Positions 29,455 to 37,260 of a DNA stretch of 64,000 nucleotides are shown one piece after another. Positions within the stretch are counted from its first letter, which is position 1, and each line of letters opens with the position of its first letter. Position numbers and translations under genes: made by a program. This DNA is from Bacteroidales bacterium UBA1205 (GTDB taxonomy: Bacteria > Bacteroidota > Bacteroidia > Bacteroidales > WCHB1-69), in NCBI GenBank assembly GCA_002309615.1, contig DBXT01000042.1, forward strand, positions 2,154-66,153, in the 5' to 3' direction. The notes beneath the pieces were generated by a model. It was not told the origin of the DNA and searched no databases. It saw nothing but the letters and a program-made list of their open reading frames with translations.

Positions 29455-31140
29455 CTAAAATCCGATATTAAAGCCTGCCATAATAGCGATAGGCAAACCG
29501 GTGGTTTTCTGCATATAAGGTGGATTGTATTTCTCCACCAATCCTTCTTCTCCTGCCGTTTTGTACCAATAGGCATGGGCATAGACAAAACTATTGTTCA
29601 TAAATTCCCATTCTACTTGCAGGGCTGCAATATGATTATAATATATAATGTTGTCCAAACATGGCAGTCCCCAAGGTTCGCCTACGCCGTAGCGATAGTC
29701 GGTGCCTTTGCGGATATAGGTATAAGACGCTTTCAAATGCAGACGTTGTACGGGACGGTATGCCAATTCGGCATAAATTTCGTCGGCATTGCTGCCCAAA
29801 TAATGACCTAGGCACACATCTCCGGAAGCAAAAGTGACAGACGGCATAAAATGTTGATATACATTGGGATGTGTGCGGGTGTATTCCAATTTTAACGAAA
29901 ACGTTTTGGGAAGGCCGCTGAAACAGGCTCCTACTTTGGTGCTGATATAATTAGATTGTTTTTGCTTGTCGAACATGCGGGTAAACGACAATTCATCTAT
30001 AAACACGGATGCATACAGATGCAGATATTTGACATTGCGGCTGCTGATGTCAAAGAACATCTGCGTGTTGTGTCCTGCCGTGTTGGAGGTGGCGTTATAA
30101 TTGTCATCCACTCCTTTGAAGAACAAAAACGGCACCACATATTGCAATTGGAAGCCCATATCGCTATAAACTATGGAATTGCCGATATTGATATATAAAT
30201 GTTTTACCGGACGGAATGTCAGCATATTGGCGGCTATCAATTTGCTTCGCATCACTTCCCGCCTGTTCCCGTTGATGGATACATACGAGGCGGCACTGTC
30301 AACGAGGTTGGAGGCCAGCCATCCGTTAAAATAGTTGTATTCAAACCATTCCACCGGAGACAATCGCAATTTAATCATCACATAGGGCAAGGTGCGTCCG
30401 GAAAGTATATTGGAGCCGTGACAGGCATTGCCCCATGCGATATTGTCTTTTATCAATGCCAGCGAACCCCATTTCCATGAAAAAGTGATGCCGCCCCGCA
30501 CATTGAAATAGTCGGTGTTGGTGGTTTGTCCTTTTAATATGGCTCCCTGCATTTGCGTCAGTTTTTCGGGGGTGCTCATCGGTTGGGACTGCGAATTGTC
30601 GGTGAAATTGGCATAAAAGCCGATATGCTTGCCTATATATCCCACCATTTCTCCTCCGCCCCAATAGCGGTACATGCGTTGTTCCTTCTGTCTGCCGGCT
30701 ACATAATATTCTATGCCCCATATCGGTTTTACCGATATTTTGAACCATTTGTTATTATAATAAAGTCCTAAAGGGTAGAGACATAAATTGACATGCTCGT
30801 TGTTTTTAAAGGCATTGATTTTATAGGCGGACTTGTCCGCATCGCGTTCCAAGTTGAATTCCAACAGGTGAAATGCCAATTCCTGCCTTTGCACTTTGTT
30901 GAGTTGCTCTTCCTGGGCTTGGACTTCCTGCAGCTTTTCTGCAACAAAGGCTCTGCTATAAGGCTTTATGGCCGTGTTGATGTCTATAAGGTGCAAACTT
31001 GCCATTTCATCCAAAAATGCATACACACTTTTATGTGATATGTGCAAAGGGTTTTCCTGGGCATGAACCGCAAATGCCACCACCGACAACAATACTATAC
31101 CTGCTATTTTGTATATAATACTCTGTTTCAAAGTTTTCAT
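29455..31140 (-). CDS. Outer-membrane beta-barrel protein, capsule-assembly Wzi-like
   Basis: The signal peptide MKTLKQSIIYKIAGIVLLSVVAFAVHAQ starts at 31140. The remainder has alternating beta-strand patterning and ends in aromatic GFNIGF. The family call is from memory of Wzi-like annotations, not from a search. Confidence 0.6.
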   Translation of the reverse strand: MKTLKQSIIYKIAGIVLLSVVAFAVHAQENPLHISHKSVYAFLDEMASLHLIDINTAIKPYSRAFVAEKLQEVQAQEEQLNKVQRQELAFHLLEFNLERDADKSAYKINAFKNNEHVNLCLYPLGLYYNNKWFKISVKPIWGIEYYVAGRQKEQRMYRYWGGGEMVGYIGKHIGFYANFTDNSQSQPMSTPEKLTQMQGAILKGQTTNTDYFNVRGGITFSWKWGSLALIKDNIAWGNACHGSNILSGRTLPYVMIKLRLSPVEWFEYNYFNGWLASNLVDSAASYVSINGNRREVMRSKLIAANMLTFRPVKHLYINIGNSIVYSDMGFQLQYVVPFLFFKGVDDNYNATSNTAGHNTQMFFDISSRNVKYLHLYASVFIDELSFTRMFDKQKQSNYISTKVGACFSGLPKTFSLKLEYTRTHPNVYQHFMPSVTFASGDVCLGHYLGSNADEIYAELAYRPVQRLHLKASYTYIRKGTDYRYGVGEPWGLPCLDNIIYYNHIAALQVEWEFMNNSFVYAHAYWYKTAGEEGLVEKYNPPYMQKTTGLPIAIMAGFNIGF

Positions 31141-31278
31141 CTTTCCACCAAGCTGATTGTGCATGACTATTGTAAAATACAAAAGTACTAAATAAATGTG
31201 AAATATAAACATTTGCAAGGAATAAATTTTTATTGACAGCTTTCGGGCGGAACTTTTATTCTGCATCAGTAAAAAAAA
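30951..31278. repeat. Direct repeat copy 1 (wzi-like 5' coding end plus its promoter/leader)
   Basis: It aligns by eye base-for-base with 32741..33068 at an offset of ~1790 bp, with roughly 80-90% identity and long identical runs such as 'gtgcatgactattgtaaaatacaaaagtactaaataaatgtgaaatat'. Confidence 0.85.
31180..31187 (-). promoter_or_regulatory. -7 promoter box (TACTTTTG on the minus strand) for the wzi-like gene
   Basis: Plus-strand CAAAAGTA lies 40 nt upstream of ATG 31140. Confidence 0.5.
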
Positions 31279-31608: not shown

Positions 31609-32739
31609 ATGGATTTACTTAACAGAACTCTTCAGCAAGTTATTGAAAATAGAATATTTAAAGGTAAAGCCATAGTGCTTGTCGGTGCGAGACAAGTTGG
31701 CAAAAGCACTCTTTTCCGTCAGATTTTATCCTCCTGTCATGATATACTGACCTTAAACTGCGACGATATAGAAACCCGCAATCTGCTTGAAAATGCCAAT
31801 TTGAGCGAATTGCAACGACTTGTCGGTTCACATACTATAGTTATGATTGATGAAGCTCAACGACTAAAAGGAGCCGGACTTACCATGAAACTTATTACCG
31901 ACAATATGCCCGATGTTCAGTTGCTCATCACAGGATCATCATCTTTTATGCTTCAAGGCAGTCTTAACGAGCCGCTTACCGGTCGCAAATTTGAATATCA
32001 TCTATTTCCATTTTCCACCCAAGAGATAAACGATAATCTCGGATATTTGCGTACCCGTCAACTGTTGGAATCCCGACTTATATTCGGCTCCTATCCGGAT
32101 GTTATTAATCATATTGCGGATAGTGCAGATATTTTATCCAACCTTTCAAGCAGTTACATGTATCAGGATTTGCTCTCATTGGAAGGAATACGCAAACCCG
32201 TGATTATTGAAAAATTGTTGATAGCCTTAGCTTTGCAATTGGGTAATGAAGTATCATACTACGAACTTTCAAAAACCGTCGGGTCGGATGTAAAAACCAT
32301 TGAGAAATATGTTGACCTGCTTGAAAAATGCTATATAATATTCCGCCTGCCCGCTCTGAATCGGAATATGCGTTCAGAACTCAAAAAAGGAAAAAAAATA
32401 TTTTTCTACGATAACGGCATCCGCAATTCCATCATACATAACCTCAATCCGCTCTCCCTACGAAACGATATAGGGGCATTGTGGGAAAATTTTATTGTAA
32501 GCGAAAGAATAAAATATAATCACTATCGCGGACATCATGTAAACTATTATTTCTGGAGAACAACCACACAACAAGAAATAGACTTTATTGAAGAAAGTGG
32601 CGGCGAATTCCAACTTTTTGAGATGAAATGGAACCCCAAGAAAACTCTTGTACAAGCTCCACGGGAATTTACAAAAGCATATGGAGAAATGCCCTTTGCA
32701 ACCATCACTCCTGACAATTACCTTGATTTTCTGACATAA
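31609..32739 (+). CDS. AAA-ATPase with a C-terminal DUF4143/PD-(D/E)xK-like domain (COG1373-type)
   Basis: Walker A 'GARQVGKST', Walker B 'VMIDEAQ', and C-terminal 'QQEIDFIEE...LFEMKW' (D..ExK-like). The start MDLLNR at 31609 lies downstream of the promoter box. Confidence 0.8.
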   Translation: MDLLNRTLQQVIENRIFKGKAIVLVGARQVGKSTLFRQILSSCHDILTLNCDDIETRNLLENANLSELQRLVGSHTIVMIDEAQRLKGAGLTMKLITDNMPDVQLLITGSSSFMLQGSLNEPLTGRKFEYHLFPFSTQEINDNLGYLRTRQLLESRLIFGSYPDVINHIADSADILSNLSSSYMYQDLLSLEGIRKPVIIEKLLIALALQLGNEVSYYELSKTVGSDVKTIEKYVDLLEKCYIIFRLPALNRNMRSELKKGKKIFFYDNGIRNSIIHNLNPLSLRNDIGALWENFIVSERIKYNHYRGHHVNYYFWRTTTQQEIDFIEESGGEFQLFEMKWNPKKTLVQAPREFTKAYGEMPFATITPDNYLDFLT

Positions 32740-32740
32740 G

Positions 32741-32930
32741 TCCTGCTGTACGGTTTGACGGCCGTATTGATGTCAATGATATGCAAGGATGCCATTTCAT
32801 CCAAAAAAGCATATACGCTTTTGTGTGTGATATGCTATGGATTTTCCCGAGCATGAACGGCACATGCCGCAACCGACAACATCACTATACCCGCAATTTT
32901 ATATATAATACTCTTTTTCAAACTTTTCAT
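32741..32930 (-). pseudogene. Truncated, stop-interrupted 5' fragment of a wzi-like gene
   Basis: It translates as MKSLKKSIIYKIAGIVMLSVAACAVHARENP*HITHKSVYAFLDEMASLHIIDINTAVKPYS, against MKTLKQSIIYKIAGIVLLSVVAFAVHAQENPLHISHKSVYAFLDEMASLHLIDINTAIKPYS in the intact gene. It has an in-frame TAG, and homology ends at the ATPase stop. Confidence 0.8.
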
Positions 32931-32969
32931 CTTTCCACCGACCTTATTGTGCATGACTATTGTAAAATA

Positions 32970-32977
32970 CAAAAGTA
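32970..32977 (-). promoter_or_regulatory. Orphan copy of the wzi-like -7 promoter box
   Basis: It has the same CAAAAGTA context as 31180-31187. It points into the pseudogene fragment and then antisense into the ATPase 3' end. Confidence 0.4.
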
Positions 32978-33159
32978 CTAAATAAATGTGAAATATGAAC
33001 ATTTGCAAGCAAGAAATTTTTGCTTGTTGATTTTTGGGTGGCACTTTTATGCTACATGAGTAAAAAATGACAGTTTATTATAGTAGCGTGCCTTCGGCAC
33101 GCGAGAGGGAGCGGAGTGTATATTCTCTCCTCCATATTGCGACCTGCGGTCTTGTATGG

Positions 33160-33192
33160 AGTTAATAAAATAGTGTGCCGGAGGCACACTAT
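33160..33192 (-). terminator. Putative terminator of the protease-RT operon
   Basis: A perfect 10 bp stem ATAGTGTGCC/GGCACACTAT (33170-33179 / 33183-33192) with loop GGA. On the minus strand it is followed by TTTATTAAC. Confidence 0.55.
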
Positions 33193-33208
33193 TTCGCTTA
33201 TCTTATTA

Positions 33209-33233
33209 ACTTCGCTTGATTCCTAATGACAAG
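33209..33233. repeat. Cassette-flanking imperfect direct repeat, copy A
   Basis: ACTTCGCTTGATTCCTAATGACAAG compares with ACTTCGCCCGATTCCCAAAGACGAAC at 36650-36675, about 19/25 identical. The preceding TTATT is also shared. Confidence 0.5.
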
Positions 33234-33309
33234 ATTTAGCAAATATTCAATCTATTCTACAATATTTTTGTTTTTAAAGTTTTTTAGAACTAAATATTAT
33301 ATACAACGA

Positions 33310-34992
33310 TCACACATATCTACTAAAGTTCTCAACTTCGTGATATTCAATATACTCAGTCAACCTATTAATTTCGTCTTCATTAATACAAGAGTTGTCC
33401 GGATTTTGAAATATATTCTTAATATCTTCTTTTAACCAATCAATGTTCCAGATACTTTCGTTTGCATTTGCAGCATATTGGCATAAAGGTTCTGAAAATT
33501 CTTTATTGCGGTTTTCTTTAATAGTCAATCTTTGTAGCCATATTTCCAAATAACCCACATTAGGTAGCTGATCAAATTTTTTCAAGATTTTCTCAATTAC
33601 TTCTTTTTTCTTATTAGTATCTGGCTCTTGTGATAAAATCTTGCTTACGATAGCAACGAATGTTTTGTATACCTTTGGATTATTGAAAGCAATATTTGTT
33701 AATATACTAATTAAGACATCTGAAGAACCGAATTCTTTATATAAATCCAATTTTTCTGTTTCTGAAATCCATTTGAAGAACAAATCCATTGATTTTTGAA
33801 CAGAACCTGAGTTCGGGTATTCTTGTGCTAATCTGTTTATACGCAACAGATGTTTCTGTAAACTATATTTGTTATCTTTTTTTTCTAAATCCTTGTAGCC
33901 ATTCGTAATATAATACAATTTGTCAGGCTTGATTGCTCCGTTTATTATATCCTGAGTTATCATTGTTTTCTGAGTGTTGAGTCTAAAATTCAAACTTGAC
34001 AAAACCTCCGTTAAGATTTTAGCAATTTTAATGACGTCCTCTTGCGAGTTTCCAAAAATGCGATAATCATCACGATAACGTAAAATTCGGTAGTCTGATA
34101 TTTTTGCCTTAAAAATCTTTTCAGATAACAACAAATCAGCATAACCCAACACTATTTCTGCAATAAAATCCATTAAAACACTGCCTTGAGGGATGCCATT
34201 AGTTTGTTGATATGACATGGATTGTATACGTGAATCAATAATATCACCTACTGTATATCGGTTCTTAACTTGTTGTAAATAAATAATAGCTTCACTACTT
34301 CCATCTAAAAATTTAGTATTACAAACACTTAGCAACTCAGCATTTAGTTCAACTTCTTTATTTTTATTTCTGTATTTATGTTTAATTTTTGCATTCTCTT
34401 TTCCACACATTGCCCATGTTATAGAGTGTGTATAAATCGATCCATAACAATCTGTTATGTCGGTTGTTATTAGATAATTGAAATTCATAGCCAACTTTAT
34501 GGATTGCTGTTCAATTTCCTCCCACCAATTTAGAATCGTATTTGTACTATTTTTCTGTTTCGACAAATTAATAATAGGTAAACTATAGCATTTAATTTTA
34601 TCGTTTTTTGCAAACTCCTGAAACCTTTCAACTATCAATGCCCAATTATCTTCTTTTGTAATTTCATTGACTAAATAAACATATAGTACTGGGTTAATAA
34701 TTTGCAAAGGACGCCACGAAAATCGTCCATCTTTATTTTGAAAGAAATGATAATTGACGTTTTCAATTGTCTTAGGTTCTACATCCAAAATATCGCTTTT
34801 TTGTGTTTTATTTTCTTTATACTTATATCTCTTGCATACAAGGAAACTTGTCAATTCGTTTAACAATTTTTGAAAATCAAAATATTTAGGCAAGCAGATA
34901 TTACAAAACGATTCTTGTCTCAAAAAAAAATGTTTTGCTTCTTCTGCTGAAGCATCAATGATAAAAGTATTCATAAATCTTTTTTCTATCAA
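33310..34992 (-). CDS. Reverse transcriptase, AbiK/Abi-P2/UG-like, with a ~215 aa helical C-terminal domain
   Basis: RT motif A is 'ITTDITDCYGSIYTHSITW' (aa 175-193), motif B 'NGIPQGSVLMDFIAEIVLG' (aa 265-283), motif C 'RYRDDYRIFG' (YRDD = nt 34066-34077) and motif D/E 'LNFRLNTQKT'. The track start at 34992 is TTG. The first ATG is at 34974 (MNTFIID). Confidence 0.85.
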   Translation of the reverse strand: MIEKRFMNTFIIDASAEEAKHFFLRQESFCNICLPKYFDFQKLLNELTSFLVCKRYKYKENKTQKSDILDVEPKTIENVNYHFFQNKDGRFSWRPLQIINPVLYVYLVNEITKEDNWALIVERFQEFAKNDKIKCYSLPIINLSKQKNSTNTILNWWEEIEQQSIKLAMNFNYLITTDITDCYGSIYTHSITWAMCGKENAKIKHKYRNKNKEVELNAELLSVCNTKFLDGSSEAIIYLQQVKNRYTVGDIIDSRIQSMSYQQTNGIPQGSVLMDFIAEIVLGYADLLLSEKIFKAKISDYRILRYRDDYRIFGNSQEDVIKIAKILTEVLSSLNFRLNTQKTMITQDIINGAIKPDKLYYITNGYKDLEKKDNKYSLQKHLLRINRLAQEYPNSGSVQKSMDLFFKWISETEKLDLYKEFGSSDVLISILTNIAFNNPKVYKTFVAIVSKILSQEPDTNKKKEVIEKILKKFDQLPNVGYLEIWLQRLTIKENRNKEFSEPLCQYAANANESIWNIDWLKEDIKNIFQNPDNSCINEDEINRLTEYIEYHEVENFSRYV

Positions 34993-34995
34993 ATA

Positions 34996-36618
34996 TTATT
35001 TCTTCAATTCTATCTCATAAAAACACCATCCACCCTCTACAGTTTCTCTTAAATTCATTTCAGTTGTAGCGAACGGAATAGGAGGAAAGTATAATGTGAA
35101 TGTTATATCTTCTCCATTAGAGAAAAAATATGTTTTTTGCGGAGCTATTGCTATTCCTTCTGCTTTTGTCATTGTATACGCTCTCCCATTAACAGATAGA
35201 TAAGTATTCTTATCAATATAGCAATAATCAGCGTAAGAATCACCTATTTTATTATTGGCAATAATCTCAACTGCTGTATATTCTTTTTTCAAAGTAACAC
35301 TTTTGATTTTTGTATTTTCTGCCGATGCCGATTTAGTTCTTACCGTGGGCCAATATATTGTATTGGAAGAATTTACATTGGGCGATACACTTCGCTCATT
35401 GTAAGATGATTGTGTTGAAGAATTAGCGGACGTTGATTGATTAGAACACTTAATCAAAAAAACAAAGTTTTTTAAACTTTTGACTTTGTCGCTTAATTTC
35501 ATTCCGGAAACTGTATTGTTTGTTGGCAGTACGGATGTTAACGATGCACTTTCCACAAGATTTCTCAACAAAGAAGTTTTAATTGCATAACCGACATTTT
35601 CCGCTCCAATATGTTTAGCATTGACAATGCCTATAAGATTGCCATTATTATCAAAGAGAGGACCACCACTATTTCCCGGCTGTACAGGTGCTGAAATTTG
35701 ATACAAAGATGCATCTCCCTGAAAACCTGTTTTGGAGCTTATCACACCTGTGGTAAGTTTTATTTCATCTCCCATGGTACTTGTCAAAGGATAACCCAAA
35801 ACAAATATTTCTTCTCCGACTTCAGATGTACTTGTTTTTATTTTGTATGGTAATGTTCCGAATCCTTTAAATCTGTTATCGTTTATTTTTAATATTGCCA
35901 AGTCATTTATTTTGTCCGTAGCTACAACTGATGCCGAATATGAAACATCAAAATTTCCGTTTACACCATTAATGTTGATAGATTTAGCATCTTCTACAAC
36001 ATGGTAATTTGTTACAATGTAACCATTGTTTAATGCAAATCCTGTTCCTGACCAATTTTCAATTTTTGACTCTTCCTCTCTTTCTTTAATTTCTCTTTCA
36101 GCTTGCCAATACATTTCTTTTGTAGGATAGGTTTTTATTAATTTATAGTGCAATATACATTTTGCTGATGCTGCAGCATCTCTTCCCATAGATTTAGCAA
36201 GAGCTTCTTTCGGTATGTTCAATTTAAAATCTAACGTTGTTCCGTTGTACAATGTAACCCATTCTTCCATAGAGTAATCCTTAAAGGTTTGTGTAAATCT
36301 ATATTGGTTAGATTCTCCGATTCTTGAAAAAATAGCTGCTCCTCCATCTTGACCTCCAATAGCATATCTATTATTGCCTATTTTTTGAATAAAAATAGTT
36401 TCAAAAGTATTATTAGGAGGGAAAGCCCTACCGAGAGCAAAAACTTGACTAGACATAGACATTTCATACACCCCTTCAATTGGATCTAATGAGCTGATAT
36501 TATTTTTGAAATATTCTTTTGCTCTAATCAGATCTGTTCTAGTTTGTCCCATTACACTTGCAACAACACACATTAAAAGTATGCACATACATAATTTGGA
36601 AATTCTATTTGTTTTCAT
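34996..36618 (-). CDS. Exported trypsin-like (S1/Trypsin_2-type) serine protease with unknown N- and C-terminal domains
   Basis: The signal peptide is MKTNRISKLCMCILLMCVVASVMGQ. The catalytic triad context is 'TNYHVV' (His206), 'INDLAILKI' (Asp239) and 'GNSGGPLF' (Ser317). An S/N/T-rich linker spans aa ~391-420. The stop lies 3 nt (TTG start) or 21 nt (ATG start) before the RT start. Confidence 0.85.
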   Translation of the reverse strand: MKTNRISKLCMCILLMCVVASVMGQTRTDLIRAKEYFKNNISSLDPIEGVYEMSMSSQVFALGRAFPPNNTFETIFIQKIGNNRYAIGGQDGGAAIFSRIGESNQYRFTQTFKDYSMEEWVTLYNGTTLDFKLNIPKEALAKSMGRDAAASAKCILHYKLIKTYPTKEMYWQAEREIKEREEESKIENWSGTGFALNNGYIVTNYHVVEDAKSININGVNGNFDVSYSASVVATDKINDLAILKINDNRFKGFGTLPYKIKTSTSEVGEEIFVLGYPLTSTMGDEIKLTTGVISSKTGFQGDASLYQISAPVQPGNSGGPLFDNNGNLIGIVNAKHIGAENVGYAIKTSLLRNLVESASLTSVLPTNNTVSGMKLSDKVKSLKNFVFLIKCSNQSTSANSSTQSSYNERSVSPNVNSSNTIYWPTVRTKSASAENTKIKSVTLKKEYTAVEIIANNKIGDSYADYCYIDKNTYLSVNGRAYTMTKAEGIAIAPQKTYFFSNGEDITFTLYFPPIPFATTEMNLRETVEGGWCFYEIELKK

Positions 36619-36649
36619 AAATCTATATTTGATATGTTAACATTTATTC

Positions 36650-36675
36650 ACTTCGCCCGATTCCCAAAGACGAAC
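36650..36675. repeat. Cassette-flanking imperfect direct repeat, copy B
   Basis: See copy A. This copy lies 31 nt upstream of the protease ATG. Confidence 0.5.
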
Positions 36676-36701
36676 AAAACAAAAAACACTCAAAACCACA
36701 T

Positions 36702-36741
36702 AAAAAAAAGCGCGGGAATCAGAACTTTTGCTCATCCCGCG
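36702..36741 (-). terminator. Intrinsic terminator/attenuator-like hairpin at the 3' end of the structured RNA
   Basis: The minus strand reads CGCGGGA-U-GAGC-AAAA-GUUC-UGA-UCCCGCG-C-UUUUUUUU. The outer stem is 7 bp, the inner stem 4 bp, and a U8 tract follows. Confidence 0.6.
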
Positions 36742-37010
36742 TACAAGGTCTTCGCATTACCTACCAACCGAGGATAAGCAATGCCGAAGCCCACGCTGTA
36801 CGTATAAACGGATTTTAGGACATCCGCTATATAAAGACGCTATTCAATAGTGCCTTTCATATACAATACCATGGACACTGATCATTGCCTTACCGTGCGG
36901 TTGGTGTAGAATTTGCGAAGTTCTGTACGCCGCAGATAAAACGTCAGTTCAACGTCTTTTCTATGTTTTGTCGTCCACCCGCAAACCCGTCAAGGCTTCG
37001 GATGTTTGAC
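36702..37010 (-). ncRNA. Candidate ~300 nt structured non-coding RNA, or structured leader of the protease-RT operon; family unknown
   Basis: No ORF is present and GC is higher than in the neighbouring DNA. It has a -7 box at its 5' side and a hairpin plus U-tract at its 3' side. Long-range complementarities are 36750-36756/36914-36920 (7 bp), 36763-36770/36898-36905 (8 bp) and 36784-36791/36994-37001 (8 bp), with several local hairpins. The 5' boundary is approximate. Confidence 0.5.
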
Positions 37011-37014
37011 ACTG

Positions 37015-37022
37015 CAAAAGTA
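37015..37022 (-). promoter_or_regulatory. -7 promoter box (TACTTTTG on the minus strand) for the structured RNA/operon
   Basis: The plus strand reads CAAAAGTA. A TTTG lies upstream on the minus strand at 37052-37049, which is longer than ideal spacing. No other TAnnTTTG was found between here and the protease ATG. Confidence 0.4.
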
Positions 37023-37080
37023 ATAAAAAAAATGATATAAAAAACCAACAAAGTCAATTTGTTGAAAAAAATATCTGCAA

Positions 37081-37181
37081 GGACGTTTCATGAAACGTCC
37101 CCACAATATCATGGTGAGTTTTCACTATAGGTGGCTTTGACAAGCTCAGCCACCCATGTAAGGACGATGTGTACATCGTCC
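37081..37181. repeat. Three GC-rich stem-loops in the divergent intergenic region
   Basis: H1 is 37081-37100, GGACGTTTCATGAAACGTCC, a perfect 20 bp palindrome. H2 is 37130-37154, GGTGGCT..AGCCACC. H3 is 37162-37181, GGACGATGTGTACATCGTCC. H1 and H3 share the frame AAGGACG-N-CGTCCC(C/G)ACA. Confidence 0.6.
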
Positions 37182-37248
37182 CGACAGGTATCTCTCCATT
37201 AAGGTATGTATTGTCCATACAAATATCGGAATATTAATAAAAAAATAC

Positions 37249-37256
37249 TATCTTTG
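37249..37256 (+). promoter_or_regulatory. -7 promoter box TATCTTTG immediately upstream of coaE
   Basis: It ends 5 nt before ATG 37261, which implies a leaderless or near-leaderless mRNA if functional. Confidence 0.35.
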
Positions 37257-37260
37257 CAGT

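Follow-up and report, generated by a model that had tools for sequence, protein, structure and literature searches.

What does a repeated RNA motif do in front of a protease gene and a reverse transcriptase (RT) gene? The minus strand of the 64,000-nt stretch of Bacteroidales bacterium UBA1205 analysed here (contig DBXT01000042.1, positions 2,154 to 66,153; the window) carries, in order, a −7 box, a stretch of about 300 nt free of open reading frames (ORFs), a terminator hairpin followed by U8, a small hairpin, the protease gene and the RT gene. A sequence-only reading proposed that a motif in this stretch, AACTTCGCAAATTC (36922-36909), pairs alternatively with TGCGAAG at 36756-36750 or with GAATCGGGCGAAGT at 36663-36650, with 31 nt between the latter and the protease ATG at 36618, and it pointed to a third copy, GAATCAAGCGAAGT (33222-33209), 3′ of the RT stop codon (33312-33310). 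All these sequences and coordinates, including the terminator hairpin and U8 at 36741-36702, were correct when re-read in the window. The best explanation, which we hold with a probability of about 0.7, is that the motif belongs to a conserved leader of variable cargo genes, that its extra partners are coincidental, and that the leader is probably an attenuator. The leader, its cargo and the repeats all lie on the minus strand.

The leader RNA extends over about 300 nt from its inferred start to the end of the U tract (36702-37008). Upstream lies a Bacteroidetes-type −7 promoter box, TACTTTTG (37015-37022), and the box and a T-rich tract preceding it align across leader copies. The fold of the leader has a z-score of −4.3. 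Of 152 genomes of the family, 51 carry homologues, with 1-6 copies each and spread over 8 of 22 genera, and a 28-nt conserved pattern identified the leader on 80 further metagenome contigs. Viral contigs gave no match to the conserved pattern, and 24 genomes from other families of the order gave only short matches to repeats upstream of the leader. A search of Rfam with the window locus and four typical members returned no relevant match at E ≤ 1, and in the published literature we found no described Bacteroidales leader of this type and no RNA linked to Abi-P2, the class of the window's RT. Judged by these comparisons, the leader is a conserved and apparently undescribed RNA family that precedes many different cargo genes in one Bacteroidales family. 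For the analyses below, we aligned 34 genome-derived copies (alignment A1) and 95 copies in all (alignment A2). The RNAalifold consensus fold of A1 contains 74 pairs, 33 of them with compensatory changes.

Some copies depart from this layout. The genome of the window itself contains a degenerate second leader (contig C44, 26469-26237), which keeps the same promoter, 5′ hairpin and closing helices and has about 30 nt in place of the core and a decayed terminator and hairpin; it is followed by an 85-aa ORF (approximate length). Another leader (L043, G001:C25) is broken off after its first half and runs straight into a type I restriction-modification operon. An AUG occurs within 18 nt after the terminator stem in 86 of 95 leaders (UUUUUUAUGUG; 36690-36702 in the window), with a frame length that is not conserved; a leader peptide encoded by a tiny ORF after the U tract was rejected, as no conserved length is seen in A2.

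Covariation assigns the motif a place in this fold. The motif, AACUUCGCAAAUUC in the RNA (36922-36909), holds the strand CUUCGCA (36920-36914), which pairs with UGCGAAG (36756-36750), the internal partner of the sequence-only reading. Across the 95 copies, 99.7% of cells in this inner helix are paired and four of seven pairs show compensatory changes, the helix occurring mainly as CUUCGCA/UGCGAAG (38 copies), UCUCGCA/UGCGAGA (42) or UCUGGUA/UACCAGA (14). Immediately outside it, an outer helix formed by GCGUACAG (36930-36923) and UUGUACGC (36746-36739) is 96.6% paired, with compensation at seven of eight pairs, and the last two bases of its 3′ strand overlap the terminator 5′ arm. Over both closing helices, pairing reaches 98.0% and 11 of the 15 pairs show compensation, while sliding the 3′ partner by 1-3 columns as a control lowers pairing to about 30-50%. 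In addition, the last two bases of the motif, UC, are paired with a GG in the core that does not vary (A1 columns 115-116 with 314-315). Per-sequence duplex energies give the same picture: the motif pairs with the internal strand of its own locus at −11.0 kcal/mol and with mismatched strands at −7.8 kcal/mol, a difference reached in 0 of 5000 permutations. The internal pairing is thus genuine, and the motif is the 5′ strand of the inner closing helix, with the adjoining junction, of a conserved leader.

The second partner behaves differently. The stretch 36663-36650 takes in part of a post-terminator hairpin (36674-36652; stem UUCGUC/GGGCGAA, loop UUUGGGAAUC at 36668-36659), namely the end of its loop and its 3′ arm, and three bases beyond it. 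The stem of this hairpin varies from copy to copy, and its loop, (U)UGGGAAUC, is conserved. The alignment is unreliable at the 3′ arm of this hairpin, and column counting was therefore dropped in favour of duplex energies and permutations. By this measure the motif and the hairpin of its own locus average −8.00 kcal/mol, against −7.77 kcal/mol for mismatched loci (n = 95), and 419 of 5000 permutations are as good; motif and hairpin do not covary. Hence, when the conservation and covariation of the motif copies are followed across leader homologues, as the sequence-only reading had suggested, only the internal partner covaries.

A model in which the motif switches between its internal partner and the post-terminator or 3′ copy, and in this way controls read-through or expression of the protease-RT operon, nevertheless has real complementarity in its favour and could be specific to this lineage. 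The 7 + 4 bp of the window amount to −13.5 kcal/mol for a 15-nt extended motif against the hairpin region (−11.5 kcal/mol with the exact 14-mer), which ranks fourth among the 95 own-locus pairs, and the degenerate paralogue on C44 keeps a compatible GCGGAGU. However, 2.3% of mismatched motif-hairpin pairs reach −13.5 kcal/mol, and a fold constrained to contain the pairing is about 12 kcal/mol less stable than the minimum-energy fold. Furthermore, the proposed partner is transcribed after the terminator and is therefore unable to influence the termination decision. The same chromosomal locus (coaE to a wzi-like gene) on a metagenome contig (L139), with a leader region 77% identical, is informative here: its motif has changed to UCUCGC and is compensated only in the internal strand, GCGAGA, whereas its hairpin arm still reads GGGCGAA-AG, leaving two mismatches in the proposed pairing. 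The 3′ copy, in turn, is unchanged in a same-genus genome (G004) although no leader was found in that genome, which is 83% complete. We regard this model as very improbable; the complementarity between the motif and the hairpin 3′ arm is a coincidence of the window's lineage. We also considered whether hairpins with a GGGAAUC loop are a general 5′-untranslated-region (5′ UTR) element and dropped the idea, since 15 of 120 genome occurrences lie in hairpin loops and form no clear class.

The idea of mutually exclusive pairings around a terminator survives with other strands. The terminator (36741-36702) comprises a stem GCGGGA/UCCCGC, an upper stem GAGC/GUUC and the U8 tract; its stem is 95.6% paired in A1, and every one of the 95 copies has at least six T among the 11 nt that follow the stem. 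Two further pairings involve its arms. On the 5′ side, the sequence CUUAUCU (UUUAUCU in the window, 36940-36934) can pair with GGAUGAG (36737-36731) within the terminator 5′ arm, forming a helix, P0, that makes CUUAUCU a candidate antiterminator strand. P0 was picked independently by RNAalifold, and 100% of its cells are paired in both A1 and A2. For the 307-nt transcript of the window, the terminator state is computed at −109.2 kcal/mol and the P0 state at −105.3 kcal/mol, about 4 kcal/mol apart.

On the 3′ side, the terminator strand GAUUCCC (36720-36714) pairs with the stretch GGGAAUC (36665-36659) in the loop of the post-terminator hairpin, a pairing that RNAalifold also predicts on A1. 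It is 97.6% paired, four pairs show double-sided changes, and on each of five measures all 500 shuffles fall short of the observed value (0 of 5000 permutations). Covarying examples include GAUUUCC/GGAAAUC (L037) and GGAUCCC with GGGAUC, GGGAUUC or GGGGUC (L092, L085, L079, L080), and the frequent G-U pairs fit only the RNA strand of the leader. Terminator/antiterminator logic thus appears to be present, as the sequence-only reading supposed, but the strands that it probably uses are not those first proposed: CUUAUCU would pair with the 5′ arm of the terminator, and the hairpin loop with its 3′ strand.

What follows the leader varies widely. The cargo includes small proteins with a type IX secretion system (T9SS) tail, lipocalin-like lipoproteins, Fib_succ_major proteins, very large surface proteins and protein kinases, as well as a recurrent sigma-70-like protein, a diversity-generating retroelement, DndC, a type I restriction-modification system and an AbiD-like gene. 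A same-strand ORF begins about 10-60 nt after the post-terminator hairpin in 91 of 93 distinct loci, and by a crude rule about two-thirds to three-quarters of these ORFs start with a signal peptide. A −7 box (TAnnTTTG) occurs in the spacer between terminator and hairpin in only 4 of 95 copies. The variable cargo, the close same-strand ORF and the rarity of a spacer box indicate that the leader serves exchangeable cargo; it is a portable expression unit in which a promoter and a structured domain are followed by an intrinsic terminator and then by a short hairpin whose loop is GGGAAUC, and we infer that the downstream gene depends on read-through. At one locus (L034, G019:C58) the leader precedes what appears to be a diversity-generating retroelement, with an RT of 428 aa, a small accessory protein and an exported protein whose C-terminal domain is lectin/FGE-like, the domains being judged by eye.

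In the mechanism that we propose, the leader would act as a transcription-attenuation switch whose default state is off. By default the terminator would form and the RNA of about 300 nt would be released. If the sensor domain enclosed by the closing helices were stabilised, by a ligand, a protein or folding kinetics, CUUAUCU would pair with the terminator 5′ arm, polymerase would read through, and the terminator 3′ strand GAUUCCC would be freed. The freed strand could then be bound by the loop of the hairpin that precedes the cargo start codon by 10-60 nt, and this loop capture would fix the 5′ UTR of the read-through mRNA. More tentatively, and at slightly less than even odds, we suggest that the leader represents an undescribed class of cis-regulatory RNA, of the riboswitch or antitermination type, from an uncultured family of rumen and gut Bacteroidales. 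Such a class would control the expression of horizontally exchanged cargo (genes for exported proteins and for defence) by three connected pairings: the motif helix would close a sensor domain, an antiterminator would capture the terminator 5′ arm, and a hairpin loop would capture the freed 3′ strand.

Several observations weigh against this proposal. The changes in P0 are all one-sided, from G-U to Watson-Crick, and the probability that six of six compatible transitions arise by chance is about 0.07 by our own count. Moreover, the 56 metagenome copies in A2 were retrieved with a pattern that contains the P0 5′ strand, so that only the 34 copies of A1 are unbiased there. Because of the one-sided changes and the retrieval pattern, the P0 helix is a candidate that is consistent with the data. 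Related leader copies are not independent, and the permutation values therefore overstate significance. The heterogeneous cargo gives no hint of the signal that the putative switch would sense. Finally, copies 1 and 2 of the direct repeat described below share GCGAAGU.AAUAA beyond the family-wide loop.

Some of the same facts would suit a leader that is mainly a stable, trans-acting small RNA with a constitutive terminator, its cargo being expressed from leak-through and the P0 and loop pairings being by-products of terminator conservation. The strong, conserved terminator, the lack of double compensation in P0, the presence of up to six copies per genome and the slightly greater stability of the terminator state in the window's copy all fit such an RNA. 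However, a small RNA does not account for the tight coupling to a same-strand ORF across the distinct loci or for a spacer that so rarely holds a promoter box; a plain terminator would have no need of the covariation seen between the loop and its 3′ strand, and the outer closing helix shares 2 nt with the terminator arm. We therefore consider a trans-acting small RNA unlikely, and favour the attenuator.

The genes behind the window's leader invite a different explanation, in which the RNA serves the RT. Cargo gene 1 (34996-36618) encodes an exported trypsin-like protease of 540 aa (Pfam Trypsin_2, E = 2.7e-28), and cargo gene 2 (33310-34974) encodes an Abi-P2-class polymerase of 554 aa (PADLOC AbiP2, E = 5e-181; PDB 7R08, E = 8e-82). 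The leader lies upstream of the RT on the same strand, as would be expected if it were a template or scaffold non-coding RNA of the retron, DRT2 or DRT9 type with the repeats marking template boundaries, and the sequence-only reading had raised the repeats as landmarks for template use. DNA synthesis by the Abi-P2 class, however, is protein-primed and template-independent (PMC9508834). The RNA and the RT also fail to occur together elsewhere. About 13 loci with an RT homologue have no leader upstream (five on genome contigs, four in genomes of the family, and the close-clade loci L066-L070), among them the closest relative of all, L066, where a 91% identical RT occupies the same locus with no leader within 5 kb upstream. 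No relative of the RT was found with a leader in the genome contigs, the genomes of the family or a large protein collection, and none of the 80 metagenome leader loci has an RT. A role as template is thus barely credible; leader and RT are unlinked, and the position of the leader upstream of the RT is incidental.

One weak leader-like match (L049, 7627-7955; E ~1e-3) lies 3′ of a distant Abi-P2-like RT and before a DNA-methyltransferase-like gene; its position downstream of the RT means that it fronts the next operon and not the RT.

The RT keeps company of another kind. Its close relatives (L066-L070; 57-91% identical) repeatedly adjoin a protease gene, either trypsin-like, upstream or downstream of the RT, or retropepsin-like with TPR repeats. 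Gene neighbourhood thus suggests that RT and protease form a two-gene defence module. Within the protease gene, position 36058 is where DNA homology to the RT-linked cassette of L066 starts. Over residues 188-539 the protease has 81% identity to its RT-linked counterpart in L066; its signal peptide and N-terminal domain are not shared with L066 and match leader-associated proteases of L139 at about 40% identity. The protease gene may therefore be a recombinant that joined a leader unit to a protease-RT pair.

The direct repeats that bracket the two genes are real, and longer than first described. Copy 1 (36644-36671) and copy 2 (33203-33230), the latter holding the third copy of the motif's target, match at 23 of 28 positions. 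Searched over the whole 2.3-Mb genome on both strands, each is the only match of the other at five or fewer mismatches, and the next best match to the 28-mer, with six mismatches, is the degenerate leader paralogue on C44. This mutual uniqueness points to homology, not chance. The third copy is accordingly a true homologue of the post-terminator hairpin; it has no tie to the cassette or the RT, as it lies in a dispersed flank repeat of about 215 nt (33080-33294), a right-end element that forms the conserved flank of the variable segment. The element consists, in order, of a 70-nt stretch resembling the end of an insertion sequence (IS), the copy 2 hairpin and a cluster of hairpins resembling repetitive extragenic palindromes (REP-like). 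Further copies are present in G004 (contigs C77, C32, C84, C83, C56 and C12), and on C77 the element closes another cargo island, with the same promoter and 5′ hairpin and a different leader body. In two copies of the element, homology ends exactly at the start of the 28-mer, beside a transposase-like ORF.

This arrangement bears on the suggestion that the repeats are recombination sites or scars, of the att, attC or target-duplication type, left when a protease-RT cassette was inserted behind the leader. Besides the true homology of the repeats, this suggestion can call on base composition (about 30% G+C in the cassette and about 40% in the flanks), on the different cargo at the same locus in G004, a second same-genus genome (G007), L066 and L139, and on the left and right end sequences that islands of the genus share. 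The junctions of the variable segment, however, do not lie at the repeats. One synteny breakpoint, with both G004 and G007, is at 37070/37071; the opposite one is at 33294 with G004 and at 33021 with G007. In G004, radical-SAM-type genes on the other strand replace the leader, the protease and the RT, and copy 2 is kept, identical in sequence and contiguous, as in the window, with the IS-end-like stretch and REP-like cluster of a dispersed element. The locus on L139 keeps the leader with copy 1 and has different cargo and no copy 2, so that G004 holds only copy 2 with other genes in place and L139 only copy 1; neither site is truly empty. In L066, copy 2 is decayed (TTAGAAAGCAAGAAAAG) within a flank that is otherwise about 95% identical. 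Among 31 leader loci with at least 2.5 kb of downstream sequence, a second hairpin copy is found only in the window and at none of the other 30; in the register of this comparison the window's second copy scores 21 of 28, and mismatched-locus controls score at most 20. The neighbourhood contains no recombinase gene. We judge insertion scars or recombination sites to be distinctly unlikely. The two copies of the repeat are homologous hairpins of a single type, of which one has become a fossil within a flank repeat, and a second copy is no regular part of the leader-cargo unit.

Several features of the flanks merit description in their own right. REP-like palindromes (GGGACG...CGTCC) occupy 37071-37260, between coaE and the leader promoter, at the left boundary of the variable segment, and recur at many places in the same and related genomes. 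The first 70 nt of the right-end element (33080-33294) resemble sequence beside a transposase-like ORF in G004 (L105, L108), which by its N-terminal sequence may encode an IS1595-type transposase. Farther downstream, an AAA_14/DUF4143 ATPase gene, missing in G004, G007 and L066, is flanked by the two copies of a duplicated segment of about 300 bp (30935-31234 and 32727-33021) that takes in the start of the wzi-like gene.

These results remove a tempting RT lead: neither the structured RNA nor the repeated motif belongs to an RNA-templated RT system, and the protease/Abi-P2 pair is to be studied apart from the leader and the repeats. In exchange, they define at the level of base pairs the closing helices, and point to a candidate three-way switch, in a widespread and apparently uncatalogued leader that fronts much of the variable, mostly exported cargo of an uncultured Bacteroidales family. 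Should the switch be real, it would constitute a new class of regulatory RNA and a way into the control of accessory surface and defence genes in these bacteria.

Comparison with known systems places the leader among cis-acting regulators. The window's RT is by sequence a clear member of the Abi-P2 class (PDB 7R08; PMC9508834), except that the RT of the window and its close clade are paired with a protease gene, the leader upstream being incidental. Like the RNAs of retrons (msr-msd), DRT2 and DRT9, the leader is a structured RNA with a long-range closing helix just upstream of an RT on the same strand; unlike them, it is not found alongside the RT in relatives, and the class of that RT is template-independent. 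The resemblance to integron attI/attC sites lies in imperfect, hairpin-forming repeats that bracket a low-G+C cassette behind a fixed promoter unit, whereas the window's repeats are not at the junctions, no integrase is present, the second copy exists at one of 31 loci and the distal copy is found in a relative that has no cassette.

Cis-acting processive antitermination RNAs, such as put of phage HK022 and EAR of Bacillus, modify RNA polymerase and do not form a mutually exclusive helix with an adjacent terminator. The leader can be likened to them by description, since both are structured RNAs, at the head of an operon or within it, that accompany long operons of an accessory or horizontally acquired kind. 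The closest parallels are with transcriptional riboswitches and attenuators. The leader differs from these in that it matches no Rfam family and has no known ligand, and its genes are functionally heterogeneous, horizontally exchanged cargo; in addition, it adds a conserved pairing between the terminator 3′ strand and a hairpin loop about 50 nt downstream. In common with them, it has a large structured domain with a covarying closing helix placed directly before an intrinsic terminator, a conserved upstream strand that can pair with the terminator 5′ arm, and same-strand genes that follow without a promoter of their own.

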